Virus record (IMG/VR): IMGVR_UViG_3300009436_000036 | Location: 1 to 46,001 of that record | From: a virus | Taxonomy: Duplodnaviria > Caudoviricetes | Length of the DNA stretch: 46,001 bases | Strand: one strand, 5' to 3' | Shown here: positions 1-29,472 of the stretch, piece after piece | Layout of the letters: each line of letters starts with the position of its first letter | Numbering within the stretch: position 1 is the stretch's first letter | Program-made: the position numbers and the translations under genes | The notes under the pieces: generated by a model | Databases searched by the model: none | What the model was told of the DNA's origin: nothing | What the model saw: only the letters and a program-made list of their open reading frames with translations

Positions 1-675
1 CAACATTACAATTCAACGGATGTTATTCAATTATTGAATAGTATTCCAAAAATAGATGGTTTTATGTATGACGTTAATATCGCCCTACAACCACCAGTAG
101 ACTGGGATTGGGTTGAGGAAAGGTTAAGCCTTCTCAATGGTTTCACAGATGATCTAAACTATTACATGGTCTACAATATGGGCAATGATGATGAGTACAA
201 TTCTAAGGTACTTGAGATGTCGAAGTTAGTTGAAGATAGATTTGACTCAATCCTCACGTTAAACCCATCATTCTTCCGTGCGCCTAAGAGTAAGGTACAT
301 GCTCACTTAATTGAGAAATGGAAGAGCTACGACTTCGCAGATGATCTTATGCCTAAGACATTTATAGATCAAGCACAGGGTGGAAGTTTAGAACTCAATT
401 ACACATACTGCAATGAAAGGTTTTTCTGGACACCATTCGTATATGACATAGCATTGATTGGCACAGATGAATTTGAAGTAAAAGATGAGAATGATATTGA
501 GTCATGGACAGAAGCCAAATCGTTTCAATTTATGGAACAATTATCTTATTCTAGTGAAACGGAAAACTGTGGCTCCTGTCCTAATATGATGACATGTATT
601 GATAAGGGTGTGCTAAGTTATATGAAGCACCATCAATTAACGCTCTGTACGTTTCCTGGTGTAATAACGACCTAA
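1..675 (+). CDS. 5'-truncated protein with C-terminal SPASM-like Cys cluster (probable radical-SAM-associated Fe-S protein)
   Basis: Frame is open from base 1 (CAA CAT TAC...), so the gene starts left of the window. C-terminus CGSCPNMMTC...LC resembles the Cx2Cx4-5C..C tails of the neighbouring rSAM genes. Confidence 0.6.
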   Translation, partial: QHYNSTDVIQLLNSIPKIDGFMYDVNIALQPPVDWDWVEERLSLLNGFTDDLNYYMVYNMGNDDEYNSKVLEMSKLVEDRFDSILTLNPSFFRAPKSKVHAHLIEKWKSYDFADDLMPKTFIDQAQGGSLELNYTYCNERFFWTPFVYDIALIGTDEFEVKDENDIESWTEAKSFQFMEQLSYSSETENCGSCPNMMTCIDKGVLSYMKHHQLTLCTFPGVITT

Positions 676-1356
676 GAATGTTCTTGGGAATGAATCGTTA
701 ATTTTACCCCATTGCTCCAAGCTATCTACGAATATGTTCTTAAAAGAAACATCAACATCTTCCATTGGATAAATCGCCATTAGGTCATTTCCATAATTCA
801 GTCGAACTTCGTATGGCTCATCTTTTAGAGGAAACAATAAGAATACGTTAATCGCATGTTGATCGTAGAAGTTAAGAACCCCCGGTGCTACAAGTATTCC
901 ATGTTTACGCAAATCTTCGCTATAATGAAACTCACAGTTCATAAAGTCTACAGGCTTTTTGGTTTTTAAATACCAAGGGGCTTCTATTTTCATCACAGCA
1001 TAACCTGGGTATAGATCATCACCATACTGCTTTTGCTCGTGCATACCAGTACCAACTTGATGCGAGTGCAATGGGCTTGCGGATGAAACTTTCCCATCAG
1101 GCGTTACCCTAAAAATCATGTCAGACCACAACTTCATTACAATAGCTTTTTGCATGTATTGGGTAATGCCAGGGCAAGCTTTTACAGTAGGGGTTGGAAC
1201 CATAATGCCAGACTTGGAGTTATAGACAGTGTACATCGTAACCAAGTTCTTCCACCACGATGGCTTTCTACTCTTAGATGTCCATTTAAAATTTGCAAAA
1301 ACACTTTTATCATAAGTGTACGCTTCAATCTCTAGTTTTTTTCTTCTCATAATCAA
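637..1356 (-). CDS. Hypothetical protein, last gene of the rSAM operon (PxWW...KxCPG...PW motif family of aquatic phages)
   Basis: 239 aa ORF overlapping the upstream rSAM gene; likely start at ATG 1350; overlaps the convergent gene by 39 nt. Confidence 0.6.
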   Translation of the reverse strand: MIMRRKKLEIEAYTYDKSVFANFKWTSKSRKPSWWKNLVTMYTVYNSKSGIMVPTPTVKACPGITQYMQKAIVMKLWSDMIFRVTPDGKVSSASPLHSHQVGTGMHEQKQYGDDLYPGYAVMKIEAPWYLKTKKPVDFMNCEFHYSEDLRKHGILVAPGVLNFYDQHAINVFLLFPLKDEPYEVRLNYGNDLMAIYPMEDVDVSFKNIFVDSLEQWGKINDSFPRTFLGRYYTRKRTER

Positions 1357-2407
1357 ATCCTGTAATTAAGTTTTGTCCAGTTTTTTCCATATAATTAAAC
1401 CACATTCTCATGATGCAGTCAGGTAAGTCTCGTTCTCTATTCTTCCAGTCCCATTGAGTGTAACATCTAAAGCCACATTTATTCCACCACTTACATGATA
1501 AACAACCGTTTTCATCCATATAAGCTTGCATCATGCCAGCATTATCTTTTGGCTTGTACTCAGTGTTGAAATCACGTTGATCGTATCTATCCCATCTACA
1601 ATTAGATGTAGAGTTGTCAGGAAAGATAGTAACCTTATTTAGCGCTAGGCAATGCATGTGATTTGATTCATTGTAGATCAAATCTTTGATTGGGTTGATA
1701 TCTGGGTAGTTGTGGTATACGAATTTAAGGAACTCAAGATATTCGCTATCTGAGGGTATCATATAATCGAAGCCACGATCTGGAATGTAATCATCAAAGT
1801 AGAAGTTGTCGAACTTCTCGTACAAGTAATGAAAATACTCATCATCGTCTGCCATGAATTTTCTGATGCTCAGCGTAGTGGCAACCATATTGATCGACGT
1901 AATGTAATCAGCGAAGTATTCGATGTTCTTAGCATACGGACCTTTCGTAGGTCTACCATCAAAGTCATATGAGCAAATGATATGAGATGGTATGTCTATG
2001 GCGTTTAGATCATCAAGCAACTTCTGTACCAATTCTCTTTTCGAGAACTGAAATGAAGTAACCCAAACTACTTTAATGTTTTGTTTGTGTTCATCGTAAA
2101 TCTTTTTAATTTCTACTAGAAAGTCATAATAAACCTCGTATGCCCAATCGGAAATACGATCTTGAAACAACTCACCGCCAAGCATATTGATCTGTATGAC
2201 ATCGGCTCTATTCTTCATTTTAATAACATGTTCTTCAACCAAAGGTATCTTAGAGAAGATTTCTTCCCTTGACAAACCTACGGTAGACTTCTTGTCGTGA
2301 TGACAGAAAGAACAATTGAGATGGCAGTTTTCAAACAACGTCATCTCAATCTCTGCTATGTCTGGTCGCTTGCTTTCCAGAAGTTGTTTTGTTATTTCAA
2401 AGTCCAA
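1325..2407 (-). CDS. Radical SAM / SPASM-type protein (rSAM-4)
   Basis: CHLNCSFC (CxxxCxxC), LGGE, C-terminal CLSCKWWNKCGFRC...C. Start reassigned to TTG at 2407 behind GAGG, overlapping the upstream stop. Confidence 0.85.
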   Translation of the reverse strand: MDFEITKQLLESKRPDIAEIEMTLFENCHLNCSFCHHDKKSTVGLSREEIFSKIPLVEEHVIKMKNRADVIQINMLGGELFQDRISDWAYEVYYDFLVEIKKIYDEHKQNIKVVWVTSFQFSKRELVQKLLDDLNAIDIPSHIICSYDFDGRPTKGPYAKNIEYFADYITSINMVATTLSIRKFMADDDEYFHYLYEKFDNFYFDDYIPDRGFDYMIPSDSEYLEFLKFVYHNYPDINPIKDLIYNESNHMHCLALNKVTIFPDNSTSNCRWDRYDQRDFNTEYKPKDNAGMMQAYMDENGCLSCKWWNKCGFRCYTQWDWKNRERDLPDCIMRMWFNYMEKTGQNLITGFDYEKKKTRD

Positions 2408-2795
2408 ATAACATTTCCTCTTTGTAGTATTCGTAGATGTCAGGAACCATACCAAGTTTCTCATTGAAGTCTAGTTGGTGTAATATCTCATCATAGGTTT
2501 CTTTGTCTTGCCAGTAAGGCACGAAATGCGGATCATTATTGAACAACAATTCTGGATCGTTGAGTGCATCGAAGAAGGGTTCGTTGAAGTCTCTATTGAG
2601 CCAATGGGCATAACATATCGCAACCACATATGATTTGGCTGGGTAAATCCATTCATCAACATACTCTCTAAAGTGCTGTAGAGCAAACTCAACTACCAAG
2701 TCGGGTTGCCAATTAATCTCTACATCAGTCAAGTCATCTTTGAATAAAGATGCTGTCAAATGATATGCGCTTTGTCTAGCTTTCCATTCTTTCAT
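2397..2795 (-). CDS. Hypothetical protein embedded in the rSAM operon (WIYPAKSY motif)
   Basis: Overlaps both neighbouring rSAM genes; likely start ATG 2795 (MKEWKARQ). Confidence 0.7.
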   Translation of the reverse strand: MKEWKARQSAYHLTASLFKDDLTDVEINWQPDLVVEFALQHFREYVDEWIYPAKSYVVAICYAHWLNRDFNEPFFDALNDPELLFNNDPHFVPYWQDKETYDEILHQLDFNEKLGMVPDIYEYYKEEMLFGL

Positions 2796-3684
2796 AATAT
2801 TCCAACAATCCTTTGTATCCATTACAACTATTAGTCAAATCTTTAACATATCGGTAATGTTCTGTTAAACAATTACCATAATATTTACACGTCTTACATA
2901 TTTCGCTCAGATTGTTCTCAGGTTCTTCCCTAGCCCACTTCTTATATTCATAATATGTTTTGTATTCTTTGAAGTATTCCTTATCGTATTTATCGAACTC
3001 AAGCACACCAAATTTACCAGATGGGGTAATATAGACGTGATCATTACTAAATGCATCATACTCTTTATCTATACTTCGCCATATATTATCCATATTCTGG
3101 AAGTTAAAGTTCTTCTCTGTCTTTGCTTCATCAAACTTAATAACAAAATCTTCGAAGTCTTTGTGTGTTACAGGGTGTGCGTTCGCTTGGTTAATTGAAT
3201 ATGGTTTAATCTCTACTGACTTGATATTAGACACCATGTTTAGTGTAAATATCATAAATTCAACATCCATCTCCAATACCTTCGGACTAGCCAAGATTAG
3301 AACAGACAAGTCTTTGTTTGCGTTCATCATGTTGTTTAGGACATGCTGTTCTTTCTCCCTTGCACTAAAGTCATAAGACACAGATAAAGTGATATCATCG
3401 TCTCGAAAGAAGTCTGGAAACGCAGAAAGGTTTGTGTTGATGTTTATATCACCTTTATAATGTTTGCGTATCTTTTCTTTTATAGCATAAAAATAATCTG
3501 ATGTCAATAGACCAATTTCCCCACCATATAGATCGACGTGTCCAATAGGATCATCTATCTGACCCAATGAATTATCTAACCATAACGGTGTTATCTTGTG
3601 CCTGTCGTTTAACTGTTCGGGCGTCAAGTAACAAAAATCACAACTGAAGTTGCAATAGTATGTGGGATTAATTGATAGATTCAT
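2776..3684 (-). CDS. Radical SAM protein (rSAM-3)
   Basis: CNFSCDFC, YGGE, C-terminal CKTCKYYGNC...C; ATG 3684 overlaps the end of the upstream gene. Confidence 0.88.
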   Translation of the reverse strand: MNLSINPTYYCNFSCDFCYLTPEQLNDRHKITPLWLDNSLGQIDDPIGHVDLYGGEIGLLTSDYFYAIKEKIRKHYKGDININTNLSAFPDFFRDDDITLSVSYDFSAREKEQHVLNNMMNANKDLSVLILASPKVLEMDVEFMIFTLNMVSNIKSVEIKPYSINQANAHPVTHKDFEDFVIKFDEAKTEKNFNFQNMDNIWRSIDKEYDAFSNDHVYITPSGKFGVLEFDKYDKEYFKEYKTYYEYKKWAREEPENNLSEICKTCKYYGNCLTEHYRYVKDLTNSCNGYKGLLEYYERMES

Positions 3685-4705
3685 CAACATAAGGCGTCAC
3701 CATATCAGGACTCATTCCATTCGTAGCAAGTATTCTTGGAGCAAGTGTTTTCATTCTACGACAATGTTCTTCAACAGTGCCTTCTCTTTTCATATCACGC
3801 ACAGTCTTCTTACAACCATTGCAAATTTCAAACATTGGACATGTATAACAAGCCATCTTCATTGTTTGGATGTGAGGATCATTCGCTAGTGGCGTCTGCA
3901 TCTCACCATTCATTTCTTCTTCAAAGTCGATGGGGTAATCCATATCATCAGCGAAAGAACCACACGAGTAGTAGTCACCACCTGGGTTGAACGCACGAAT
4001 ACCACTGTCACACAGTCTATTTTGTGGGCAAGAGGTTGAGTAACCTTTAAGACGTTTCATCATCTGCTTTGTATTGAACTCGTGTTCAGCCAATCCACGA
4101 TCATATATCTCAAGATATGTTTCATAAATCTTACTTAACTGATAGGTACTGCCTTGGACACCAGATGCCATAGCATAATTTAGCTTACACTCCACACCCA
4201 TTTCTTTAGCAAGTTCAACGTTCTTGATAGCAAGGTGAGCATTTTCATCTACAATAACAGAAATGAAGTCTGGACGTTCGCCAGTGTGCTTTAACATAGC
4301 ATTAGACACCATCCAGAAATCTTTCTCAGTGAATTCTGAGTAATCACCTTTTAATCTACCACCACCATATTGAAATGATGTAGCACAACCAAATCTTTCA
4401 TTCTGAAATATAGGAAGCCATTTCTCTGGTCGCATTAAGAAAGGCCATAGATTAGATGTAAAGCTGATAGATGCTGGGTAATCATGTTCGTTAAGATGAT
4501 CAATCAGTTCTTGGTAATACCCTGGCTTAACCATAAGTGGATCACCACCATTAACGATAATAGTATTCGTGTCTGGGTATCGCTTAAGAAATTTGTATAT
4601 GTACTCTAAGTCCAACAGCCCAACTTCATTGGGATCAATGTCAGTAGAAGAACAAAACGTACACTTAAAATTACATGCTTCGGTGGGTTTAATAATTAAA
4701 TCCAT
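3668..4705 (-). CDS. Radical SAM / SPASM protein (rSAM-2)
   Basis: IKPTEACNFKCTFC, GGDP, SPASM-like C..C..GDYYSC..CYTCPMFEICNGC..C. Confidence 0.9.
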   Translation of the reverse strand: MDLIIKPTEACNFKCTFCSSTDIDPNEVGLLDLEYIYKFLKRYPDTNTIIVNGGDPLMVKPGYYQELIDHLNEHDYPASISFTSNLWPFLMRPEKWLPIFQNERFGCATSFQYGGGRLKGDYSEFTEKDFWMVSNAMLKHTGERPDFISVIVDENAHLAIKNVELAKEMGVECKLNYAMASGVQGSTYQLSKIYETYLEIYDRGLAEHEFNTKQMMKRLKGYSTSCPQNRLCDSGIRAFNPGGDYYSCGSFADDMDYPIDFEEEMNGEMQTPLANDPHIQTMKMACYTCPMFEICNGCKKTVRDMKREGTVEEHCRRMKTLAPRILATNGMSPDMVTPYVDESIN

Positions 4706-5724
4706 CCTTTTTCTCCCGCTAGTTTTAGCATTAGAGTTTTAGGGGCTGGGCAAACATCTTCCATCCATTGTAACTGATGACAATCAGAATGGCAATAGAT
4801 AAACACAGGGCAGTCATAACACCTTGGATCACGATCATGCGTCTCGCACGAAATGATCTCCATACGTTTTGGGCTTTCACGCACAGTCTTTGCTGGCATG
4901 CTGATATCACCATACCATTGAGTGGGCGCAGTATTAGGACAACCTGCTACAGTACCATCGGCATTGATGGTGTGTATCTTTTGTTCGCAATCTCTACAGA
5001 ACGTACCATTAAAGAATTGACCTTTGCTAAACTTGTCATACACAGAATTAAGAAAGTTATTCTCAATAGGGTGGTCTTTAGTTGTCTCGTGCATCTTCAT
5101 CCAAAAGGCATCAAGCTCAGAGTTGTGTGGAAAGATTTCTGTATTGATTGTTGCATTACCATCGTGTGTAAGGCGCTCATAACTAATAGTACCAATGCCT
5201 AAAGAGTGCATATAATCTGCAATCTCAAGTGGTTCCATTGCAACAACGTCTTTAGATACTGAGATAAAGCATTGGATATAACAACCTTCTGCAACTAAAC
5301 GCTTTACATTATCTTCCCAAAGCTGTCTTTGCTTTTCGTTTGCAAAACGAATATTAGGGTCCCATGATGTGCCGATAGAACCAGAGTCTAATACTTTAAG
5401 AAACTCAACACGTTCGTCAGTTAGCTTATACGTAAGATTTGTCGTGATGCCGTGTGTACATTTATCACCCCAATGTTCTTTCGTAACATTATAGAAATGC
5501 CACAGGTCTTTCATTGGCGCAAGCAGAGGCTCACCACCATGATACTCAAAGTGAATGTGGTTTGACCCATCGTCTAGTTCGTTACACCACTTAGCTGTCT
5601 TGTCTGCATCGAAGTAAATTTTACGCCCATTGATACCAGAGGTAAAACAGTGAGCGCAGTTCAGATTACAAGTTTCAGTAGTTTTAACGTATACGATTAA
5701 GTGTTTCTGTGTCGTGAATGCCAT
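4696..5724 (-). CDS. Radical SAM / SPASM protein (rSAM-1, anSME-like architecture)
   Basis: KTTETCNLNCAHC, YHGGEP, TTN, SPASM CRDC..GTVAGCP..CYDCPVFIYCHSDC..C. Confidence 0.92.
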   Translation of the reverse strand: MAFTTQKHLIVYVKTTETCNLNCAHCFTSGINGRKIYFDADKTAKWCNELDDGSNHIHFEYHGGEPLLAPMKDLWHFYNVTKEHWGDKCTHGITTNLTYKLTDERVEFLKVLDSGSIGTSWDPNIRFANEKQRQLWEDNVKRLVAEGCYIQCFISVSKDVVAMEPLEIADYMHSLGIGTISYERLTHDGNATINTEIFPHNSELDAFWMKMHETTKDHPIENNFLNSVYDKFSKGQFFNGTFCRDCEQKIHTINADGTVAGCPNTAPTQWYGDISMPAKTVRESPKRMEIISCETHDRDPRCYDCPVFIYCHSDCHQLQWMEDVCPAPKTLMLKLAGEKGWI

Positions 5725-6136
5725 GTGATAACATCAATGCCTTTTCATAATTTAACGCTCTATGCGGTGTTCCAGATGGTATTAAAACTGTATCGCCTTT
5801 TTTTAATACAACCTCTTTGCCTTCAACTTCCATAATCTTTGTGCCAGCAAGACATTCGATAAGAACATCTACAGGGTCTGTGTGGACATCAAATGATGCA
5901 CCATTCTTTTGATTGTAAAAGGCATGGACAGTTCCTTTTACAAACAGTAAAGTTTCTATTTGCTCTACTTTCATAGTTCTACTCTCAGACAACAACCTAG
6001 CTACAGTCCCAACATATGAGATGAAGTCAGTCTGTTCTAAGTAGTGTTGATTACCATCTTCGTCTATATAAGAAACATCGTGGTTATCAAAACACGTTTC
6101 TGTAAGAAGGAAGTTTTCAAAGTCGAGAAATGTCAT
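5684..6136 (-). CDS. Cupin / JmjC-like (HxD...H) putative hydroxylase
   Basis: FDVHTDPVDV...GDTVLIPSGTPH, typical cupin/JmjC metal-binding motifs. Confidence 0.75.
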   Translation of the reverse strand: MTFLDFENFLLTETCFDNHDVSYIDEDGNQHYLEQTDFISYVGTVARLLSESRTMKVEQIETLLFVKGTVHAFYNQKNGASFDVHTDPVDVLIECLAGTKIMEVEGKEVVLKKGDTVLIPSGTPHRALNYEKALMLSHGIHDTETLNRIR

Positions 6137-6161
6137 AGTCCTTGCCCATATTATATAATTG

Positions 6162-6195
6162 TATTTATACTACCATGTTTAACTCAAAATGTCAA
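6162..6195 (-). promoter_or_regulatory. Overlapping sigma70-type early promoter and T4 late box for the rSAM operon
   Basis: Minus strand: TTGACA (6195-6190)-N17-TAGTAT (6172-6167) overlapping TATAAATA (6169-6162). Confidence 0.7.
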
Positions 6196-6208
6196 CTCAA
6201 AGATTTGT

Positions 6209-6216
6209 TATAAATA
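6209..6216 (+). promoter_or_regulatory. T4 late promoter
   Basis: TATAAATA just upstream of the 2OG-Fe(II) oxygenase gene. Confidence 0.7.
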
Positions 6217-6228
6217 GTATCATATATC

Positions 6229-6813
6229 ATGAGGAGATTGAATATGGAAATGACACCACGTTGGCCTACTATGTTTGGTCAGGGGAAATTTGAAGTTGAC
6301 GGATTATTTGAATACCTATTTGCAAACTACGACTTAAACGATCCAGGCGGTGATGTAGATGGCGCAAATATTTTTACAGATAATTCTGAAATGATGAATA
6401 AGTTTAAGTCCGTTGTTCATGGTAAATTCAACGAATATCTTACAAACACAATCAGTAAGACTATAGAAGACTTTGGCGATCACGAAATTAAAGCTTGGAT
6501 TACAGGTCATGGCAAAGGTTATAGCATGACAACCCATAACCATTCTGGCGCACACATATCAGCGGTGTTTTACGTTTTAGCTGAAGATAAGTATTCTGGT
6601 GGGTCAATTGTATTCATTGATCCAAGAAGTAATGCAAATCGCGGATACGATAGTTCGTTTGATGATTTATTTGCGCATCATGCATTCGTCCCAGAAACTG
6701 GTGATTATGTAATCTTTCCTTCTTTTAATTACCATCACGTAAAACCTTACTACTCTGAATTTAGAATATGTATACCAGTTGATTTGTATTTGTACAGCAA
6801 CAACGACGTATAA
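6229..6813 (+). CDS. 2OG-Fe(II) oxygenase (TIGR02466-like)
   Basis: HNHSGAHISAVFY, GGSIVFIDPR, FPSFNYHHV, terminal R; start may be 6244. Confidence 0.8.
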   Translation: MRRLNMEMTPRWPTMFGQGKFEVDGLFEYLFANYDLNDPGGDVDGANIFTDNSEMMNKFKSVVHGKFNEYLTNTISKTIEDFGDHEIKAWITGHGKGYSMTTHNHSGAHISAVFYVLAEDKYSGGSIVFIDPRSNANRGYDSSFDDLFAHHAFVPETGDYVIFPSFNYHHVKPYYSEFRICIPVDLYLYSNNDV

Positions 6814-6886: not shown

Positions 6887-7270
6887 ATGGCTTTTACATA
6901 TACATACACTGTCCGTAACCTCAAGGTTAAGGATGAAGTGAACGCAGATGGCGACACACTAACTAATGCTGTTGTGCAAACATACTGGGATATTACTGGT
7001 ACTGACGAAGAAGGCAACACTGGTCAATTCACTGGCGCAACACCTTTTTCAGCGGCTAATGTTCCTGCTGGATCATTCACAGCTTTTGCTGATTTAGACG
7101 AAGCAACTGTAATCGGTTGGATCACAGGCGTAATCAACGGCGATGCAGGTTACAAAGCACACATCGATACGCAAATTCAAAAAGAGATCGACAGAAATAT
7201 TGCAACTGAAGTGGCTGGAGAAGATTTGCCATGGGGTGAAGCCACGCCAGCACCTGCTGACGATATTTAA
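6887..7270 (+). CDS. Small acidic late protein, putative tail-fibre-associated
   Basis: Late boxes and GGAG RBS upstream; YTY..V...W...G....F.AF.DL.E..VIGWI pattern shared with the next gene. Confidence 0.6.
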   Translation: MAFTYTYTVRNLKVKDEVNADGDTLTNAVVQTYWDITGTDEEGNTGQFTGATPFSAANVPAGSFTAFADLDEATVIGWITGVINGDAGYKAHIDTQIQKEIDRNIATEVAGEDLPWGEATPAPADDI

Positions 7271-7285
7271 TAGAAAGAAACAATC

Positions 7286-7615
7286 ATGACATACACATGG
7301 GAAATACTAAAGCTTGGAACCCTTGACCAGACAAACAGTGATGGTGATGTGTTGGCTGATGCAATCATTTCTATTAAATGGAAAAAAATTGTGACCAACG
7401 ATGACAATAAGAAAGCAAGTTTTGTTGGTAAAACCACACTCGACGTGTCTGATGTTTCATCGGCTGACTACGTTGACTTGGATGATGTGACAAAAGCAAT
7501 TGTCATTGAATGGATCGAAGAAACAATGACTGAAGCTGAGATAAATAACATTAACAACATTTTATCCAAGAAGCTACAAATTGAAACGATGACTACGTTT
7601 AAGCCTGATTGGTAA
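7286..7615 (+). CDS. Paralog of the preceding small acidic protein
   Basis: MTYTW..L...W....SF.G....Y..L.DVT...VIEWI, same pattern as 6887-7270. Confidence 0.6.
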   Translation: MTYTWEILKLGTLDQTNSDGDVLADAIISIKWKKIVTNDDNKKASFVGKTTLDVSDVSSADYVDLDDVTKAIVIEWIEETMTEAEINNINNILSKKLQIETMTTFKPDW

Positions 7616-7648
7616 AAACCACAGTCTACTTTATATGATGGAGAAATC

Positions 7649-8686
7649 ATGCACGACTTGCACATGGGCGGTTTGGCAACATACGCTTTAAAAAGAGGGG
7701 GTTCATTACACCCTATTTGTATACCTACTGAAGTTTTAGGTAACGAAACTGGAATCATGAACCCCTCTATATTCTCTCACAAAGGAAAAATCCTTGTCAA
7801 TGTGAGACACGTAAACTATTATCTATATCACAGCGAAGGTAAAAAGTTTCCTCACCAGTGGGGTCCTTTGGTGTATATTCATCCCGAAAATGACGTAACA
7901 CTCACAACGCACAATGTAATGTGTGAGTTGGACAAGAACATGAATCTTGTGAATGCCCAACGTGTTAAGATGGCATTAGACACAGGCAAGCCAACATGGA
8001 ATTTCATTGGTCTTGAAGATGCACGGCTATTCAGTTGGGACGATAGGTTGTTCCTATGTGGTGTGCGTAGGGACTGCTACGACGATAAAGGTCGTGGACG
8101 AATGGAGATGTGTGAGATCGAATTCATTAACGGTGAATGGACAGAAATTTCACGAAACCCCATTCCAACACCTGGTGACGATAGTTCTTATTGTGAAAAG
8201 AACTGGATGCCAGTTAATGACATGCCTTGGCACTTTGTTAAGTGGACAAACCCAACACAGGTTGTCAAGTTTGATATTGAAAACGGCACAACTGTTGATG
8301 CAATCTATGACGCAGAAAAGAAGGTCGAAGCTAATAAAGACTACAGAGGTGGCTCACAAGTAGTACGTATTAATGACAATCAGCGCATGGCTTTTGTTCA
8401 TGAAACAAATTTGTTGCGTGATCCGTTTGGCAGAAAAGATGGCAACTATGCACACCGTGTAATTATATGGGATAACGATTGGAATATTGTTCACAGAAGC
8501 AGAGAGTTTCACTTCATGGGAACTTACTACGATCATGTGAAGGCACAAGACTATAACATTGAATTTGTTACTGGGGTCACAACACTTGGCAATGATATTC
8601 TAATATCTTTTGGATGGCAAGACAATGCTTCATATATATTGCGTATGCCACAGGTTATATTTTCACAATTCTTGATGGGTGAATAG
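7649..8686 (+). CDS. Beta-propeller glycosidase/phosphorylase-like protein
   Basis: NPSI, GLEDARL, CEKNWMP, RGGSQ, IEFVTG, ISFGWQD motifs typical of GH43/GH130-like five-bladed propellers. Confidence 0.65.
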   Translation: MHDLHMGGLATYALKRGGSLHPICIPTEVLGNETGIMNPSIFSHKGKILVNVRHVNYYLYHSEGKKFPHQWGPLVYIHPENDVTLTTHNVMCELDKNMNLVNAQRVKMALDTGKPTWNFIGLEDARLFSWDDRLFLCGVRRDCYDDKGRGRMEMCEIEFINGEWTEISRNPIPTPGDDSSYCEKNWMPVNDMPWHFVKWTNPTQVVKFDIENGTTVDAIYDAEKKVEANKDYRGGSQVVRINDNQRMAFVHETNLLRDPFGRKDGNYAHRVIIWDNDWNIVHRSREFHFMGTYYDHVKAQDYNIEFVTGVTTLGNDILISFGWQDNASYILRMPQVIFSQFLMGE

Positions 8687-8920
8687 ATGACCAAAAAACT
8701 AATTCAAATTACTGATATACTTGAGACTAAGCTTCGTAAAGAAAAAGAAATAGAATATTACAGGCAACAAATTGAAAAGATACAACAGAAGATGATGTTT
8801 CTTCAAAAAGACCTTGACTTAACACAATTGATAATTTCCATCATAGAGAAGGAAAAGATTTACGACATCAAAGAGACGATGGAAAAACGAATGATAGAGG
8901 GTGACGATAATGAAGTTTAA
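8687..8920 (+). CDS. Small coiled-coil hypothetical protein
   Basis: Abuts the upstream stop; heptad-like K/E/Q-rich helix. Confidence 0.65.
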   Translation: MTKKLIQITDILETKLRKEKEIEYYRQQIEKIQQKMMFLQKDLDLTQLIISIIEKEKIYDIKETMEKRMIEGDDNEV

Positions 8921-10148
8921 AAATATGCAAGTTCTAAATGATGTTGTTTTAGACTATAGTAATCCATGGAAAATGTTTGAACTCGCACGTGAGTACGATA
9001 AGTTGAAACAAGGTGCGGCGGCATTTGGTTGGTATCTTAGAGCGGCTGACTTCTGTGAAGGAGAAACATACGAAGAAAAATGGTTGCAATATAGATGTAT
9101 GCTTTTTGGTGCGGCTATCTTTGACAGATCGGAAGCTAGAAATCAAACCACACAAGGTCTTCTTAAGATGGCTATGGCTGTGTTACCTACTAGACCAGAA
9201 GCATATTACTTCATGGCTAAACATTCGATGGACACAAACAACTTTCGTGATGGGATAATGTATTCTCAAATGGGTCTTGCCTTAGATTTGGTTCCACGTG
9301 ACGATGATAATGAGTTGGGATATCCTGGTCGTGTTGGTTTGGAACATGCATATGCGGTTTCTAAATGGAAGACTGATGGTAGGGATGCTTCCAAAAACCT
9401 ATTCTTCGATCTAAAGCACAAATGCAAATTAGAAATGACTAAAGAAATACGTGACAGTGTTGATTGGTGGATTGAACAAATCGGCTACCCAAGTACACTT
9501 CCATACACAAGAGAAGAAGAAAAGAAATACAGATGGAAATTTGATGGTCTTAAGTCCGTAGATAATAACTACTCTCGACACTTTCAAGATATGTTTGTCT
9601 TATCACTTCTTAAAGGAAAGATGGAAGGTACGTTTGTAGAGATTGGGTCTGGACATCCTACACTATTCAACAACACTTACTTGTTGGAGAAAGACTTCGG
9701 TTGGAGAGGATTGTCTGTAGAACATAGCGAAAGAATGTGCGCTCAGTTTAGCAGAGAGCGTAACACAAGCATTGTTATGGATGATGCCGCAACCTTGGAC
9801 TATGATAAACTATTCAAACAACATTGTCTTGAGCAACATATCGAATATTTAAGAATTAATGCAGATCAAGCATCTCTTGCGGCTTTGAGTAGAATTCCGT
9901 TTTCAAAACATGAATTCTCTATTATCCAATTCCAACATAATGAATGTTGGTGGGGTACTGAGATTAAAGAAAAGTCAAGAGAAATGTTGAATAGTATTGG
10001 TTATAAATTGTTTGTTTCTGATGTGGCTATCGATCCCATCAACTCTTATGAGGATTGGTGGGTACATCCATCAATCATAAATGACCATATGAAGAGCGAT
10101 AAAGGTATTAACTTTGCTTGGGATTACATGATGAAGGGAAGAAAATGA
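8910..10148 (+). CDS. TPR-like N-terminus fused to FkbM-like SAM-methyltransferase domain
   Basis: Helical repeats (PTRPEAYYFMAK), then QDMFV...GTFVEIGSGHP..NNTYLLEKDFGWRG...EDWW. Confidence 0.65.
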   Translation: MKFKNMQVLNDVVLDYSNPWKMFELAREYDKLKQGAAAFGWYLRAADFCEGETYEEKWLQYRCMLFGAAIFDRSEARNQTTQGLLKMAMAVLPTRPEAYYFMAKHSMDTNNFRDGIMYSQMGLALDLVPRDDDNELGYPGRVGLEHAYAVSKWKTDGRDASKNLFFDLKHKCKLEMTKEIRDSVDWWIEQIGYPSTLPYTREEEKKYRWKFDGLKSVDNNYSRHFQDMFVLSLLKGKMEGTFVEIGSGHPTLFNNTYLLEKDFGWRGLSVEHSERMCAQFSRERNTSIVMDDAATLDYDKLFKQHCLEQHIEYLRINADQASLAALSRIPFSKHEFSIIQFQHNECWWGTEIKEKSREMLNSIGYKLFVSDVAIDPINSYEDWWVHPSIINDHMKSDKGINFAWDYMMKGRK

Positions 10149-10924
10149 AACCAGTGATCGTAACAGGTGGATTTGATCCACTACACTCAGGACATATTGC
10201 ATACTTCAAAGCGGCTAAAGAATTAGGTTCTATCCTATTCGTTGGTCTTAATAGTGACGAATGGCTGACACGTAAAAAGGGCAGACCTTTCATGTCTATT
10301 GAAGAACGTATGTCTATTATCAAAGAAATTGGTTGTGTGGGTCATGTGTTTACTTTTGATGATTCAGATGACACTGCATGTGATGCTATTCGATATGTAG
10401 CAAAACAAACTCCTAGAAACTCAGAAATCATATTCGCTAATGGTGGTGATCGTAAAAAAGGAACAACACCAGAAGTTGAGTTTGCTAGAGAATTACGTGA
10501 TGAATGTAACATATCATTTGCATTTGGTGTTGGTGGAGAAGATAAGAAGAATAGTTCATCATGGATATTAAAGGAGTGGGACAAGCCCACTACAGATAGA
10601 CTATGGGGTAAATATAGAGACTTAGATCAGAATGGACATTGGAAGGTTAAAGAGTTGTCTATTGATGTTGGTAAGTCATTATCTGATCAAAGACACTTCA
10701 TACGTTCTGAACATTGGCATATTGTTGATGGTGACCTTAAAATGGACTTAGAGTTCTCTGATGGTTATTCGACATCTAAGGTTTATGGAACTGGTGATAG
10801 TATAGACATTCCATCTAATACTTGGCATCATGCAACTAATGTTGGTGATAAACCTGTTAAGGTTATTGAAGTATGGATGGGTAATACATTATCTGAAGAT
10901 GATATTGAAAGAAGATATGCTTAA
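10145..10924 (+). CDS. Cytidylyltransferase-like (HxGH) domain fused to type II mannose-6-P isomerase-like cupin
   Basis: TGGFDPLHSGH, GLNSD, FANGGDR, KNSSS; C-terminal WG.Y...LSDQRH..RSEHW...EDDIER. Confidence 0.8.
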   Translation: MKPVIVTGGFDPLHSGHIAYFKAAKELGSILFVGLNSDEWLTRKKGRPFMSIEERMSIIKEIGCVGHVFTFDDSDDTACDAIRYVAKQTPRNSEIIFANGGDRKKGTTPEVEFARELRDECNISFAFGVGGEDKKNSSSWILKEWDKPTTDRLWGKYRDLDQNGHWKVKELSIDVGKSLSDQRHFIRSEHWHIVDGDLKMDLEFSDGYSTSKVYGTGDSIDIPSNTWHHATNVGDKPVKVIEVWMGNTLSEDDIERRYA

Positions 10925-13845: not shown

Positions 13846-15951
13846 ATGGCAATTGCAAATTATTTTTACAATTCGACTACTAGAAAGTACGTGGCTATAT
13901 TTGGTACACTCTTTAATCAAGTAAAGATTCAGAGAACCAATAATGCTGGGGCTTTGCAACAAGAAATGATTGTTCCACTGTCGTATGCACCATTCCAAAA
14001 AATCTTAGCTAGGGTAGCGGCTGACCCTGATCTTATTAACAGCACTCGACCAGCTATGACGCTTCCAAGAATGTCTTTTGAGATTAATAACGTAACATAC
14101 GATCCTCAAAGAAAAATAGCTACGACACGTAAGGTGTTGAAGCCAACAGCCAACGAAAATACCAACCAAAGAGAATTCATGTATTCTGGGGTTCCTTATA
14201 ACATCGACTTCTCATTGTACATCATGACAAAGTATGCTGAAGACGCAACTAAGATTATGGAGCAAATCCTTCCGTTCTTTACACCTGACTGGACGGTAAC
14301 GGCTAAGATGATACCAGATCACGAGCCTGTTGACATTCCAATTATCTTGAACAGCGTTACAACTGAAGACTTGTATGAAGGTACGTTTGAAGAAAGACAG
14401 TCAATTCTATACACACTAACCTTTACACTCAAGGGTTATTATTACGGACCTCAAAAGACCAAAAAGGTAATTAAGTTTGTTGACGTGGACTTTCACAACG
14501 GTACAGATACCAACTCTCCATTTGTAGAAGGTGTGGACGTAAGACCTGGCCTCAGTGCAAACGGTCAACCCATTTCGACAGAAGGTCAACAAGCTACAGC
14601 AAAAGCTGTTGTTTCAAATGGTTCATTAACATCTATTGATCTATTAGTCAACGGCGAAAAGTATAACGCCAACACTACAGTTACTATTGCCGCACCAGAT
14701 ACAGCCAACGCATCTATTACTACTACAATGGCAAATGGTTCTTTGAGTGGTATCAATATTCTAAACGGTGGTGGTTACTTCTCTACACCCCCAACAGTCA
14801 GCTTTAGTGTTCCAGATGCGACACCACAGACTGCTGCTGGTACGGTTACTGTTATTGGTGACTCGATCACTGAAATTGCAGTTACCAGTGTAGGTAATTT
14901 CTACAACACACCAACATTCACTATTAGTCCACCCCCAACTGTTGCCTCTGTGGTTAAGTTTGGTGACGATGCGTTGCCTCACACATCCGAAACAGATGTT
15001 ACGTTGCTACACACATTCGATGGCTTCTATAGCTCTAATACTGGCTACAAAGTACAGTTCTGGATTTACCCAACTGAAATTACTGCTGGGAACCCATACT
15101 CAATATTATTTGCGCCGTTCACAAAGATATTCTTGAATGTCGATGGTAGTGTTGGTTTTCAATACTCTTCACAACCAGTCGTAACTTCTGACACAAACGT
15201 GACAGTAAATCAATGGAACCATGTTGAGCTAGAACATTCTGGTACTAGCATCAGACTTAATGTCAATGGCGTTAAGGGTACTACCGCAACACGCGGTGCT
15301 GGTAATGTTATTCTTCCAACTCACACATATAAAGCTGGTGATGCACAAGGTAATCAATCGGTATTCGATGGGGCTAACAGAAGTTTCGTTGGTGTCTTGG
15401 ATAACGTTACATTTGAATCACAAGCTCAATTAGTTGGTACAGATGGATCATCTTACACGATGCCTACGTCAGCCAACAGTGGTGATATTTTCGAAAAGAA
15501 CTTTGACAAGACACTTCCTACTGCAACAGCTACGGTAGTCGATGGTGAAGTCACTGCAATGACTGTTACGAGTGGTGGTCTTGGTTACACAGGCGATGCA
15601 CCAACAATCACATTTGACGCCCCTGATGACGTTGCGGCAAGCTTTACAGCATCTGCAACACCTGTTTTAGTTAATGGCTCTATTACAAAGCTGTCAATAA
15701 ATAACGTAGGTAAGTTCTATCTCACTGACGCAATCATTTCTGTGTCAGCACCAACTGCCACTACTGCTACTGCAACCGCTGTAATTGCATCCAATGGTGA
15801 TGTTTCGTCTATTACAGTTACCGATGCTGGTCTAGGTTATAGAACAGTGCCTACCGTGACTATATCACCACCAAACTTCGGCTCAATACCATACCAAGAA
15901 ATTGAGTTCGATGATGATTGGGGTATCATTAAAACAATAGTGAGTGAATAA
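13846..15951 (+). CDS. gp15: Tail terminator / sheath stabiliser gp15 with large repeat + LamG-like insertion
   Basis: N-terminal YFY..TTRKYVAIFGTLFN..VPLSYAP..LPRMSFE..EQILPFF; canonical-looking end DDDWG; about 450 aa inserted. Confidence 0.88.
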   Translation: MAIANYFYNSTTRKYVAIFGTLFNQVKIQRTNNAGALQQEMIVPLSYAPFQKILARVAADPDLINSTRPAMTLPRMSFEINNVTYDPQRKIATTRKVLKPTANENTNQREFMYSGVPYNIDFSLYIMTKYAEDATKIMEQILPFFTPDWTVTAKMIPDHEPVDIPIILNSVTTEDLYEGTFEERQSILYTLTFTLKGYYYGPQKTKKVIKFVDVDFHNGTDTNSPFVEGVDVRPGLSANGQPISTEGQQATAKAVVSNGSLTSIDLLVNGEKYNANTTVTIAAPDTANASITTTMANGSLSGINILNGGGYFSTPPTVSFSVPDATPQTAAGTVTVIGDSITEIAVTSVGNFYNTPTFTISPPPTVASVVKFGDDALPHTSETDVTLLHTFDGFYSSNTGYKVQFWIYPTEITAGNPYSILFAPFTKIFLNVDGSVGFQYSSQPVVTSDTNVTVNQWNHVELEHSGTSIRLNVNGVKGTTATRGAGNVILPTHTYKAGDAQGNQSVFDGANRSFVGVLDNVTFESQAQLVGTDGSSYTMPTSANSGDIFEKNFDKTLPTATATVVDGEVTAMTVTSGGLGYTGDAPTITFDAPDDVAASFTASATPVLVNGSITKLSINNVGKFYLTDAIISVSAPTATTATATAVIASNGDVSSITVTDAGLGYRTVPTVTISPPNFGSIPYQEIEFDDDWGIIKTIVSE

Positions 15952-22242: not shown

Positions 22243-23454
22243 ATGAAGTCCTTTAGACAAATTTTAGGTGAGGTTGCACAGCCAAAGCCAGAAGAAGAAC
22301 GTGCTTTTAAAGACATGCACTCATACGAGACTATGCCACATCCAGTGGCTCTTGACCATCAGTTTACTGGTGCAATTGGTGCTGACGATCTTCCAAGAGA
22401 AAAGGCAAAAAGAATTGCTGATCAAGAAGGTGACGCTAATTACGACACTTCCTATGATGATGCATTCGAATATGCAGGACCTTCTTTTGACGAATCTGTC
22501 GAACTTGATGAAGCAGAAGACCTACAGGAATTATCTATTGGAACACTCTCAAAATACGTTCAGAAAAAAGTTGGCAAAAACGCAAGAGCTAGTGAAGCTT
22601 TAAAAGCTATGTACGCCCTTTCCAAAGTACCAGCATTTAATAAACTTAATAAAGCCGACAAAGACGCCGCGATGAAGGTGATCAAAGACCAAGAAGCTAT
22701 GGTAAAGAAATCTGAAAAGGGTATCGATTTAGCCAAATTAAAAGCTACGGCAAAGGCTGACGCCATGGGTATTGATATTGTTTTTGGTAAAGATGGCAAA
22801 TCAATGGCTAGATCAAAGATCAGAGAACAAGCAGACCAAGCTATTGTGAATAGACTTTCAGAAGGTTCAGCAATGGCTAAATCAGCGGCATTGTCAAAAG
22901 CATCTGCGACTTCTAAAAGTGGTAAAGCTAAAGTATCATTGAAGAAAGCTCCTTGGGACAAGAATGAAGAAGTCGAACTTGATGAAGCATCTGCATCTGT
23001 CTACAAAGACATGCCAAAAGCGCCAGGAAAAATGATTTCTAATAGAGTGCAAGTAAAAGCATTTAAAGATGTAAATGCAATGGGTGCGTTCCTTAGTAAA
23101 CAAAATGACAACTCTTGGCAAGATACTGGTGTTTCTGGTTTGAAATCAGGCAAATACAAAATTGATATGGTAAAAAAAGGCGGCAAGCCATCTAAAAACT
23201 TTATCAAGGTAAACGAAGAAGTCGAACTTGATGAAGGCTTTTCTGATAAAGATATCGCTAAGTTGAAAAAAGCATATGCAAGTATGCCTGATCGTGTTCC
23301 TATGGACATGGCGCAGAAAATGGGTGCAATGTTGAAGAAGCGTAGCAAAGAAGAGTTGATTGCAATCGCTCGTGCTGACATCAAATGGCTTTCAACAACA
23401 GCGGCTACTAACCTAATCATGCAAGGTGTTAAAGCCTCAGAGATTAATGGGTAA
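22243..23454 (+). CDS. Modular prohead core/internal protein 1 with VELDE repeats
   Basis: Lies between gp20 and gp21; N-terminal MKSFRQILGE; three VELDE motifs separate Lys/Ala-rich segments. Confidence 0.7.
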   Translation: MKSFRQILGEVAQPKPEEERAFKDMHSYETMPHPVALDHQFTGAIGADDLPREKAKRIADQEGDANYDTSYDDAFEYAGPSFDESVELDEAEDLQELSIGTLSKYVQKKVGKNARASEALKAMYALSKVPAFNKLNKADKDAAMKVIKDQEAMVKKSEKGIDLAKLKATAKADAMGIDIVFGKDGKSMARSKIREQADQAIVNRLSEGSAMAKSAALSKASATSKSGKAKVSLKKAPWDKNEEVELDEASASVYKDMPKAPGKMISNRVQVKAFKDVNAMGAFLSKQNDNSWQDTGVSGLKSGKYKIDMVKKGGKPSKNFIKVNEEVELDEGFSDKDIAKLKKAYASMPDRVPMDMAQKMGAMLKKRSKEELIAIARADIKWLSTTAATNLIMQGVKASEING

Positions 23455-24706
23455 AATGATATGAAAACGTTTAAGCAAATTGTAGAAAATATTGTAGTCC
23501 TTGATGAAGCAGTCATGGATCAAAAGATGTGGGATCAAACTAAGAAGGGTGATAAACTCACTATTAGTTATGACTCAGGCATCAAAAAAGGCAACAAGAC
23601 TACATTTGTTGTAGGAACGAAAAATATTGTTGGTAAAGCTAGAGTTGGCAAGATCACAATGAAAAGAGAAGATGGCAAGGGCGGTAAGTTCTTCCTATAC
23701 AACCGTAATGGTAACATCTCTTTAGCGTTGGGTGACATGGCGGCTTCTATGACTGGTCTAGTTAAAGAATCTGTAGAAGTAGAACTTGATGAACGCAACT
23801 ATGCTAAAGAGTATGCAAACTACCATAGCAAACCAGAGCAAATTGCAAACCGTTCTTCAAGAAACAAAGCACGTAGAATTATGGCTAAAGAGAATGATGT
23901 TGACGGTATGGATGTTGGACATGCGGATAATAACCCATTGAACAATGATCCTGCAAACTTACGTATCGAAAATCCAAGTGATAATCGTCGTGAGCCACGT
24001 ATGCGCAACGAAGGTAAGAATGACAAATACCCTCTTTACCACAAAGATTTCTCAGGTGCTATGAAGACAGCATACGATCACGCTAAGAAAAATCTTGGTG
24101 TAATTGTTGATCCATCAGAGATTGATGACAAGGTTGCAATGGGACCTAAAAAGCCAAGCACAGGTAAGACAAACTCTTATCGTTTGACAGACAAAAGCGG
24201 TAAGAAAGCTATCCAAGTACAGGTATACAACACTGGCAAAAGCTATGAGTTGAACATGTATAAAGAAGACTTGGATGAGGCTGTTGAACTTGATGAAGCT
24301 TCTAAAACTTTGCAAGCAATGATGAAAATAGTTGACCAAAAGCAAGCGGCAAAGATTGACGGTGTTATGGTTGACATGTTCACAGCTTCTGCTGTCACAC
24401 AGATTTACAACAAAGTAAATGACGCCAATAAAGCAAAACTAGATAAGATGAAAGCAACTCAACTTGCAAACGTTGCAATGAAACTAATGAAAAAAGAAGA
24501 CGTTCAGCTTGATGAAGCACCTCGTAGAAAAGGCGCACCAAAGATAAAGCCTGACTTCCTTAAAGTTCAACGTGCAAAAGACGCTGAACATAATGCGGCT
24601 ATGGGACGCACCAAGACTGGGCGTAAGAAACCAGTACGCACAATGACTTCTACACAAAAATCTTTGGCTTCAATGCGCAGAGAATGTGCTGAAGTTCTTG
24701 ATGAAA
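22498..24706 (+). repeat. Dispersed CTTGATGAA (LDE) repeat, 8 copies
   Basis: Copies near 22498, 22966, 23215, 23500, 23776, 24283, 24502, 24691; GAAGAAGTCGAACTTGATGAAG is identical at 22966-22987 and 23215-23236. Confidence 0.85.
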
Positions 24707-25062
24707 AAGAATACGATCCATATGCTAAGTCTACAAAGAGAGCAGTTCAACATGCTAACGCAAACAAAAAAGTTGCCAAAGCTAGAAATGATGCTGTCAA
24801 AACTTCAAGAGAAGTAAAAAGCAAAAGAGACTTGGCGGCTTCTTATGAAGAAGTACAACACATCCAAGAAGCATTCAAAGCTGGTGGTCTTAAGTTAAAA
24901 GATGGCAAGCAAGTAATGGTCAAAAAAGACGATGCTACGATGTTGAATGATCTTATGAAGCAACTTAGTAAGCCTAACGTCAAGAAGATGACTGACACTG
25001 CTATGAAGAATAAAAAAGGTTATGCTGAAATTCTTGGGTTCGCTAGGGATAGTCACGAGTAA
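23461..25062 (+). CDS. Modular prohead core/internal protein 2 with LDE repeats and an HNH-like module
   Basis: N-terminal MKTFKQIVE; VLDE, VELDE, DLDEAVELDE, VQLDE, VLDE, IQE junctions; DVGH.DNNPLNN...NLR..N segment. Confidence 0.7.
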   Translation: MKTFKQIVENIVVLDEAVMDQKMWDQTKKGDKLTISYDSGIKKGNKTTFVVGTKNIVGKARVGKITMKREDGKGGKFFLYNRNGNISLALGDMAASMTGLVKESVEVELDERNYAKEYANYHSKPEQIANRSSRNKARRIMAKENDVDGMDVGHADNNPLNNDPANLRIENPSDNRREPRMRNEGKNDKYPLYHKDFSGAMKTAYDHAKKNLGVIVDPSEIDDKVAMGPKKPSTGKTNSYRLTDKSGKKAIQVQVYNTGKSYELNMYKEDLDEAVELDEASKTLQAMMKIVDQKQAAKIDGVMVDMFTASAVTQIYNKVNDANKAKLDKMKATQLANVAMKLMKKEDVQLDEAPRRKGAPKIKPDFLKVQRAKDAEHNAAMGRTKTGRKKPVRTMTSTQKSLASMRRECAEVLDEKEYDPYAKSTKRAVQHANANKKVAKARNDAVKTSREVKSKRDLAASYEEVQHIQEAFKAGGLKLKDGKQVMVKKDDATMLNDLMKQLSKPNVKKMTDTAMKNKKGYAEILGFARDSHE

Positions 25063-28495: not shown

Positions 28496-28711
28496 ATGAC
28501 TATCGAAGAACTCAAGAAAATAAACGAAGTGTTCTATGCTGTTAAGGGTCACTTATTTCCTACTGGATATAGCCTACATGAAATGCGTGTTGTATACGAC
28601 AGTTACTTCAAACGTCTTTGGAACAACCACGAAAGACTACCTACTTGTAGAGAAGATTTCGAAAAGGTTTGGGAAACCAGAACAACTTGGCTTCACGACA
28701 TAGAAGACTAA
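28496..28711 (+). CDS. Hypothetical protein
   Basis: ATG 28496 behind GAGGAG; the listed 28469 start lies in the terminator. Confidence 0.6.
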   Translation: MTIEELKKINEVFYAVKGHLFPTGYSLHEMRVVYDSYFKRLWNNHERLPTCREDFEKVWETRTTWLHDIED

Positions 28712-29472
28712 GCTAAGTAATCTGCTAATCTGTCAGCTTTGTTAACGAAGTCATCGTATGCATCTTCAACCTTTTGTTGGTTGTAGAAGAAATACTTGTG
28801 TATTCTTTGCCAAATACTTTTCTCTACCATAGAATAGCCAAACGAAAATACGATACACTCGTAATGTGTGTAGTTTCTACAGGTTTGCACATTCCAAAAC
28901 CTAGTTAAATCTAAATCAGTATATGGTTTTTGTCTTCTTCGCTGTTGGGGTGCTTCATTATATAACTGATCATCAAATACAATGTGAAGTGTAACTCCAC
29001 CATCAGACCACCAAGGAACATCTTTACAGGGTCTTTCTACGGTATTAATGGCATTGTCATACCAATGTATATCACAATTAAGTTTATTCATTTCAGAAAC
29101 AAATTCTTGCTTTTGTTCTGTATTATTAAACACAACACCAATATATCGATGTTTTGAATCATCATGACCTTGGCAACTCGTAAAGGTTAGATATCCTTTT
29201 TTGTGCAAAGCACGAACACCATCCTTAACTCGTGGCTCAAGGTTGTCTTCTATTATATCGGAATATTGACTTACGAAACTGCTTACATAATTGCCATCTT
29301 CATCTTTAAAGCAGTATGTTCTACCACCAATCAAATGATCGTTACCCTTTACGAACATGGCGTACCTATGACCATCCTCTGCATTCTTGAACATAGGTTC
29401 TTTTTGTTCTTGCTGATATTGGTGATAGTAGGGTACTACAATTTCATATTGGCTTTTCAATAGGTTCTCCAT
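28708..29472 (-). CDS. Hypothetical protein with TSCQGH motif
   Basis: 254 aa ORF; CATAAATA on minus strand at 29499-29506. Confidence 0.6.
   Translation of the reverse strand: MENLLKSQYEIVVPYYHQYQQEQKEPMFKNAEDGHRYAMFVKGNDHLIGGRTYCFKDEDGNYVSSFVSQYSDIIEDNLEPRVKDGVRALHKKGYLTFTSCQGHDDSKHRYIGVVFNNTEQKQEFVSEMNKLNCDIHWYDNAINTVERPCKDVPWWSDGGVTLHIVFDDQLYNEAPQQRRRQKPYTDLDLTRFWNVQTCRNYTHYECIVFSFGYSMVEKSIWQRIHKYFFYNQQKVEDAYDDFVNKADRLADYLA

Follow-up and report, generated by a model that had tools for sequence, protein, structure and literature searches.

The DNA analysed here, hereafter the window, is a 46,001-nt stretch of a Caudoviricetes virus (IMG/VR record IMGVR_UViG_3300009436_000036); it is the complete assembly, and the contig ends at position 1. 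Its left end, positions 1-6813, contains four radical S-adenosylmethionine (radical SAM, rSAM) genes and the severed end of one more, together with genes for a cupin and for a 2-oxoglutarate (2OG)-Fe(II) oxygenase, set in a T4-like head, neck and tail region. Our results suggest that the window encodes half of a late-promoter kit in which the rSAM enzymes cross-link the Cys-His-x-Ser tail of a predicted virion protein located beside a trimeric fibre, a reading to which we give a probability of about 70%.

Seven minus-strand open reading frames (ORFs), overlapping one another by 10-68 nt, form an operon that is met by a truncated convergent ORF and flanked by the divergent oxygenase, and the ORFs and family matches bear out this organization as given in a preliminary description of the DNA. 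The operon opens with a cupin/JmjC-like protein (5684..6136; conserved H85, D87 and H125), followed by the radical SAM proteins R1 (4696..5724) and R2 (3668..4705), both putatively of SPASM type, the radical SAM protein R3 (2776..3690), the WIYPAKSY (WIY) protein, a predicted partner protein belonging to PHROG20737 (2397..2822, with a probable start at 2795 according to its homologues), the radical SAM protein R4 (1325..2464) and a PxWW/CPG protein of PHROG7084, function unassigned (637..1356), all on the minus strand. The oxygenase (6229..6813, plus strand) belongs to PF13759 and PHROG81. The plus-strand ORF at 1..675, earlier described as SPASM-like, is indeed the 3' end of an rSAM gene, and it belongs to a fifth family, X12, encoding proteins of about 350 amino acids; it shows 87-92% identity to the full-length copies in the closest relatives and keeps four conserved C-terminal Cys. 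It is the final gene of a convergent operon which, in relatives, starts with a fibre gene and two tail proteins. The gene order is reshuffled between clades, with R1-R4, WIY and the cupin recurring.

The motif TATAAATA, which we take to be the T4-type late promoter consensus, lies on the minus strand at 6162..6169, 26 nt ahead of the cupin start, and on the plus strand at 6209..6216, ahead of the 2OG-Fe(II) oxygenase. It also precedes the sheath, protease, scaffold and capsid genes of the window, where it occurs at 10 sites for 3.1 expected (0/100 shuffles reached 10), and 26 of 43 close loci retain it ahead of the cupin.

Each of R1-R4 presents CxxxCxxC and matches PHROG1802 (E-values from 1e-19 to 1e-58) as well as PF04055, the gathering score of which is reached by R2 only. 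The motifs CxxxCxxC and GGE/GGD are kept in at least 90% of the R1-R4 homologues, which places these proteins in the radical SAM superfamily; full-length X12 proteins show CxxxCxxC and have GPTD in place of GGE/GGD. In alignments of 54-67 homologues, the conserved C-terminal Cys number eight in R1, eight in R2, six in R4 and only four, plus His278, in R3, so that two auxiliary clusters are predicted for each of R1 and R2. The SPASM model TIGR04085 scores 24.7 bits for R1 and 22.9 for R2, for a cut-off of 27. The Cys motifs of the four enzymes agree with the preliminary description, which saw little other similarity between them; at the profile level the four are homologous, with 98% for R1-R4 and 96% for R1-R2, R2-R3 and R3-R4, and R4 aligns with R1 over 269 columns. 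The best family matches, all weak, are DarE, PapB, DarW and anSME for R1, and DynA and anSME for R2; anSME, which modifies Cys/Ser in a full-size protein, is also the only PDB sequence match for R1 (E 1e-3) and R2 (E 9e-6). These are peptide maturases and anSME, and not QueE, NrdG or MoaA, the models of which score at most 27 bits, over an N-terminal stretch only. None of the specific models is reached either: anSME (TIGR03942) gives 38.7 bits for a cut-off of 349, HxsB and HxsC (TIGR03978 and TIGR03977) give at best 34.5 for 370 and 23.7 for 267.9, and the cyclophane synthase models XyeB, YhhB, FxsB and AmcB all remain below 30 bits for cut-offs of 370-450.

No precursor had been recognized in the window, and we confirm this: neither a six-frame motif scan nor a body profile retrieves one, because the contig ends. 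A CHSDCH sequence within R1 was rejected as it belongs to the auxiliary-cluster motif of R1 itself. The search of homologous loci to the left of the window, as first proposed, revealed a short Cys/His-rich candidate substrate, co-conserved and located just outside in every close relative that is long enough. It is a folded protein of 120-400 amino acids with the C-terminus CHxSCHxSCHxSRGRR (hereafter the tail protein, its C-terminus being the tail). In four cultured phages, translation of the neighbouring genes retrieved a 178-306 amino acid protein ending in CHxSCHxSCHxxRxRR-stop in 4/4, with its gene beside the enzymes in each. The truncated gene has 26 related loci; 17 of these extend at least 7.1 kb upstream and 17/17 contain the tail gene, the remaining nine being too short to show this region. 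The tail gene is located behind a fibre gene, 6.6-8.4 kb to the left of the point equivalent to the window edge; in 16 of the 17, two tail copies behind the fibre gene are followed by X12, two genes named H11 and H8, and four more X12 rSAMs, the last of which is the gene cut at position 1. The source phage would thus most likely, judging from these relatives, encode nine rSAMs and two tail proteins, the genes of the latter being predicted 6.6-7.6 kb ahead of position 1: the five rSAM genes first counted are correct for the window, but the locus of close relatives has nine.

The association between the tail and the enzymes extends well beyond these close relatives. R2 and WIY match an identical set of 15 phage records (Atu_ph07, Phosso, RSL2/RSF1 relatives and DT01), and IMG/VR contains 317 relatives of R2, 80 of them retained here; in L012, L013, L015, L026, L030-L037 and others, the R2 match is about 250 nt longer than the gene, a second piece being joined. 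Searching with a DNA pattern that represents only the tail, we retrieved 123 viral loci, out of an estimated 300 or so in the collection; the 80 with flanks of 5.6-20 kb were used and 43 short ones set aside. At least one rSAM of these families is present in all 80. In the 42 tail loci with full flanks we found R4 in 42, H8 in 42, R3 in 41, R1 in 39, R2 in 39, H11 in 37, WIY in 35, the cupin in 34, the 2OG oxygenase in 32, a B12-type rSAM in 16 and X12 in 14. R1-R4 occur together in 38 of them, and in three of the four misses R1 and R2 lie just past the flank. R1-R4 are therefore core components and WIY, usually located right behind R3, is near-core; the oxygenase is a common but not obligatory neighbour. 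The tail gene follows R1 directly in most single-tail loci. The PxWW protein does belong to the cluster, as previously indicated, but it is accessory, being found in 12 of 84 other loci, all from close relatives. Counting all 80 loci, the B12-binding radical SAM gene (L064:8286-10007) is present in 22 and is a candidate methylating tailoring enzyme. In one contig (L263 and L226), R3 is missing from a twin-tail locus, and a third tail gene lies at a distance of about 18 kb.

The tail is more constant than the protein that bears it. A body-only profile found 125 ORFs, of which 124 end in the tail; likewise, of the best 120 database homologues, 119 terminate with the tail, and in the remaining one it lies 12 residues before the C-terminus. 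Mean identity is 81% in the tail and 37% in the body for 22 sequences, which were selected by the motif. Between twin-tail and single-tail clades, R1, R2, R3, R4 and WIY are 49%, 63%, 59%, 30% and 44% identical, whereas, for the single pair that was compared, neither the substrate body nor H11 could be aligned and H8 was 21% identical. The conservation of enzymes at 49-63% beside such divergent bodies, H11 and H8 suggests that the enzymes read the tail and that H8 and H11 handle the body. In the structural model, the body reaches a predicted local distance difference test (pLDDT) score of 87, and the last ten residues fall to 51. The tail has three to four repeats, and Gly occupies position -3 in 88%. 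Across 816 positions (272 tail contexts, 96 distinct 12-mers), the residue at His+2 is S in 716, N in 67, A in 27, Q in three, R in two, K in one and Gly in none, whereas Gly is common at His+1 (131/816); this is the pattern expected if His+2 donates its beta-carbon to a cross-link with His. A Dysosmobacter-labelled contig (L124:3-359) carries 13 Cys-His pairs in spaced groups, adjoined by H11, R4 and R2 homologues.

No Pfam or NCBIfam family was found for the tail protein, H8, H11, WIY or PxWW. The tail protein has no PDB match by Foldseek and no clear solved fold by VIA (best Z 4.2), and its BFVD matches are solely uncharacterised or unnamed phage-type homologues. A crude hydropathy scan detected a hydrophobic N-terminus in none of 141 tail proteins, mostly from phages and Bdellovibrionota; two phage tail proteins scanned have no peptidoglycan-binding Pfam domain, and no long fused forms were found, which is weak evidence. 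The WIY model is mostly helical (pLDDT 91), and its fold search, in which it was compared with the PqqD-like fold of RiPP recognition elements (RiPP: a peptide made by the ribosome and modified after translation), gave a best Z of 3.6 among 48,161 chains, with no clear match; such weak or missing fold matches do not demonstrate a new fold. The Atlas features for WIY were uninformative. The idea that WIY is HxsD-like is unsupported, since TIGR03976 was unmatched by 30 WIY proteins at E-values up to 1; it had no match to the H8 and H11 examples either.

The virion context comes from Atu_ph07 (PMC6102473; here and below, statements drawn from cited articles refer to the parts of them that were covered). 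Its virion proteome includes gp170, the tail protein, with eight peptides and 35% coverage, and gp176 with 14 peptides, whereas genes 144-169 and 171-175, enzymes included, are not listed in the part covered. The mass of gp170 is 31.9 kDa, yet it peaks in gel band 1, at the top of the gel, beside proteins of 76-139 kDa; among the 25-37 kDa virion proteins in the table rows covered, 3 of 33 peak in band 1 and 19 in bands 7-8. Together with the tail protein co-conserved in 17/17 close relatives, the presence of gp170 in the virion supports the earlier proposal of a RiPP-like, multi-step modification of a virion protein. The fibres themselves had been suggested as a possible target; a virion target is favoured, but it is likely the small tailed protein beside the fibre. 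In the gene family that lies upstream of the tail gene, 22/25 members have a Peptidase_G2 autocleaving chaperone domain at their end, and the best PDB match is the phi29 preneck appendage; in 55 of 80 loci such a gene ends no more than 3 kb before the tail gene. In the close relatives, the fibres directly upstream are collagen-like, with collagen repeats.

Related loci are also found outside the phage records. R2 has relatives in 28 genome loci, 17 of them labelled Bdellovibrionota; the complete tail is present in 13 of these 17, and S74-type fibre genes lie inside the locus in 10 of the 16 examined. Pfam confirms S74 in 11 proteins from seven loci, with a match to the prepilin N-terminal motif in five. 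In Bdellovibrionota, fusions of a prepilin-like N-terminus to an S74 chaperone occur near the kit in L101, L103, L109, L110, L112, L113, L117, L120, L122 and L123, usually accompanied by a conserved partner of 200 amino acids without a family. This partner resembles a Peptidase_G2 domain by eye, an assignment we rejected as it scored only 22% probability. Phage-like contigs with the kit (L099, L102, L106, L107 and L116) are binned as Rhodobacteraceae, Marinovum, Methanobacteriota and Rickettsiales, and binning is no proof of host. In plasmids, R1 matches 26 records at 22-27% identity, and homologues of H8, H11 and WIY were not detected among plasmid proteins. Behind its type IV pilus operon, the Pseudomonas megaplasmid pQBR103 has about ten rSAM genes, which enclose a 124 amino acid tail protein with a signal-like start, four CHxA repeats and RGWR; a homologue of this protein is found in 129 plasmid records. 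A Vibrio plasmid has six rSAMs behind pilus genes, with the tail gene about 130 kb distant. In pQBR57/pQBR103-type plasmids, the function of this "arylsulfatase/SAM region" is stated to be undetermined (PMC4989453; bioRxiv 10.64898/2026.03.27.714766).

Among known systems, the closest working analogy is HXS (HxsA/B/C/D; PMC13128918), which provides a precedent for the rSAM maturation of an HxS-repeat protein: there too, several rSAMs and a small partner act on a full-size protein with basic His-x-Ser repeats, and the tail likewise has three His-x-Ser repeats. However, the repeats here begin with Cys and the array is at the extreme C-terminus; there are four to nine rSAMs instead of two; and the kit is phage-encoded, would act on a virion substrate without a signal peptide, lacking the HXS effector architecture of signal peptide plus peptidoglycan-binding domain, and does not reach the HxsB, HxsC and HxsD models. 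Triceptides (minviopeptin MicB, PMC12912966; XyeB) share an aromatic-x-X motif occurring three times, including His-x-Ser, a putatively SPASM-type rSAM and possibly a 2OG tailoring partner, and the His-x-[S/N/A/Q/R/K] motif found here, without Gly, fits them; in minviopeptin, a His-Ala-Ser cyclophane is made by an rSAM (for cyclophane RiPPs in general, see bioRxiv 10.1101/2024.12.16.628070). They differ in that the substrate here is a folded protein of 120-400 amino acids accompanied by many rSAMs, with no protease or transporter recognized and family cut-offs not reached. SCIFF ranthipeptides and CXXX-repeat targets (TIGR04114/PF27846) have CxxxCxxxC spacing in an rSAM-associated protein, and among named Atlas clusters PF27846 comes closest to the tail protein (score 0.79, a lead only), but each Cys of the tail is followed by an invariant His, the sequence terminates in RxRR, and seven tail proteins had no NCBIfam match to these models at E-values up to 1. 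As for anSME, despite its PDB matches, R1 and R2 are far under its family cut-off and no sulfatase was recognized among the neighbours. The megaplasmid SAM region (PMC4989453; bioRxiv 10.64898/2026.03.27.714766) contains distant R1/R2 homologues and, unremarked in the covered parts of these sources, the 124 amino acid protein with CHxA repeats; it differs in the signal-like N-terminus of that protein and the undetected H8, H11 and WIY homologues. Finally, a marine T4-like genome has 12 rSAM genes, with no substrate named in the part of the article covered (PMC5332604). Our literature search retrieved no paper describing the tail or the kit, with most subscription journals outside its coverage.

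We consider it likely that the enzymes modify the Cys-His tail. We propose that the folded substrate would be held by H8 and H11, whose divergence parallels that of its body, while the more conserved rSAMs would read the invariant tail. One or more of them, R1 and R2 being the best candidates, would take a beta-hydrogen from the Ser, Asn or Ala at His+2, which would then be joined to the imidazole, giving three-residue cyclophanes at -2 Da each; the cross-link would probably run from His to the Ser/Asn/Ala two residues on. Whether a His-Ser cyclophane is really among the products is for us slightly short of an even call. Ranthipeptides carry thioether chemistry on Cys and, by analogy, the invariant Cys suggest additional thioether chemistry, with other rSAMs possibly acting on Cys to form thioethers or inter-subunit links. 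The optional oxygenases and the B12-rSAM may supply tailoring; the preliminary description had placed both oxygenases of the window in the pathway, and they are present but may serve other substrates. The rigid tail could then contact the host surface or lock the protein onto the fibre, and a role in attachment is a tentative proposal that we rate a little below the cyclophane.

Alternatively, the tail could be matured and then act off the virion, as a released peptide or a periplasmic effector in superinfection exclusion or counter-defence. The HxS repeats and basic end recall HxsA, which blocks phage DNA entry (PMC13128918), the N-termini of the plasmid versions look signal-like, cleavage of a RiPP at Gly by a 2OG enzyme has a precedent (PMC12912966) and the tail has its Gly at -3, and the repeat number is variable, up to the 13 pairs of L124. 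Nevertheless, gp170 was recovered from purified Atu_ph07 virions, the 141 tail proteins lack a hydrophobic N-terminus in the crude scan, the body folds confidently, no conserved protease or exporter was recognized among the recurrent neighbours, and a fibre gene and a late promoter adjoin, so that we consider this explanation unlikely.

In other pathways, several rSAMs cooperate in building metallocofactors. Similarly, the six invariant potential ligands of the tail, its three Cys and three His, might bind a metal, the rSAMs assembling or inserting a cofactor instead of cross-linking, and marine T4-like genomes with 12 rSAM genes also hold Fe-S carrier genes (PMC5332604). This seems to us slightly less probable again, as His+2 and the terminal RxRR are conserved too, the repeat number varies, the best family and PDB sequence matches are peptide/protein maturases, and the highly variable body has no recognizable enzyme fold. 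It is still more improbable that the enzymes modify the fibres, for example their collagen-like repeats, with the tail protein being a co-assembled structural partner, an explanation that would suit the two oxygenases better than the rSAMs. The collagen-repeat genes of close relatives lie directly upstream, and the 2OG gene, which has a promoter to itself, is lacking in 10 of 42 full-flank loci, but the tail tracks the rSAMs in 80/80 loci, compared with 56/80 in which the G2 fibre gene is found, and also accompanies related rSAMs in Bdellovibrionota and plasmids. Lastly, a role as auxiliary metabolic genes that modify nucleotides, cofactors or DNA bases, suggested by weak N-terminal matches between R4 and NrdG/MoaA and between R1 and a QueE-like PHROG, is scarcely credible given matches far under cut-offs, the R4-R1 alignment, the structural-gene setting, the late promoter and the co-conserved Cys/His protein.

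Several observations weigh against the cross-linking of a virion tail and must be considered. The tail genes of the source phage itself lie outside the assembly and are predicted from relatives; the 80 loci counted are related, some contigs also trained the profiles and three were counted twice. Every maturase match is far under its family cut-off (at best 50 bits for 450), and the best NCBIfam matches of R4 are NrdG, viperin and MoaA, although weak (E 7e-4 to 6e-3). The virion evidence comes from a single phage, Atu_ph07, the supplement of which, in the part covered, has no peptide list; its gel buffer lists no reductant and, therefore, disulfides, a stable oligomer or other cross-links could all fit the high migration of gp170 (PMC6102473). 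A G2 fibre gene is absent just upstream in 25 of 80 tail loci, no late-promoter match lies upstream of the cupin in the 28 distant loci, and both plasmid tail proteins look exported, not virion-like. Finally, some other constraint could keep Gly from His+2, and the proposal does not account for as many as four to nine rSAMs on one 16-residue tail.

Other genes of the window accompany the cluster or its structural setting; no tRNA genes were found in it. A plus-strand block at 6887-10924 encodes two DUF7936 proteins, unannotated proteins of 345 and 415 amino acids and a nucleotidyltransferase-cupin fusion; many close relatives have it together with the rSAM cluster, as do L043-L049, where the order differs. 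Directly after the major capsid gene, a displaced accessory gene (28708..29472, minus strand) shows 64% identity to an rSAM-cluster protein of other phages; its homologue in L047 sits between R3 and WIY, and no Pfam family was found for it. At 13846-15951 (plus strand), a tail sheath stabiliser (gp15) is fused to a laminin-G domain and virion-protein repeats, in a family ranging from about 260 to more than 1,900 amino acids among relatives. Between the portal and the prohead protease, at 22243-25062 (plus strand), are two long basic proteins in which ELDE motifs recur and one of which contains an HNH-like stretch; we guess that they may be protease-cleaved internal head proteins.

Multi-enzyme radical chemistry is not commonly regarded as a way of finishing virion proteins, and the kit described here occurs in hundreds of viral contigs, from T4-like and phiKZ-related jumbo phages, with an identified candidate substrate and cultured carriers in Atu_ph07, Phosso and pQBR103. 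It would supply at least five uncharacterised rSAM families acting on one 16-residue tag, apparently portable between unrelated carriers, and it turns the dozen-rSAM puzzle of marine phages (PMC5332604) and the megaplasmid SAM region (PMC4989453) into one testable question. We further speculate, while considering it doubtful, that large phages, predatory Bdellovibrionota and megaplasmids share a radical-SAM appendage-tip chemistry, in which the same Cys-His tail on unrelated fibre or pilus carriers would become a polycyclic RiPP-like moiety gripping, or covalently anchoring to, the Gram-negative surface. If true, this would amount to a natural product displayed on a virion.

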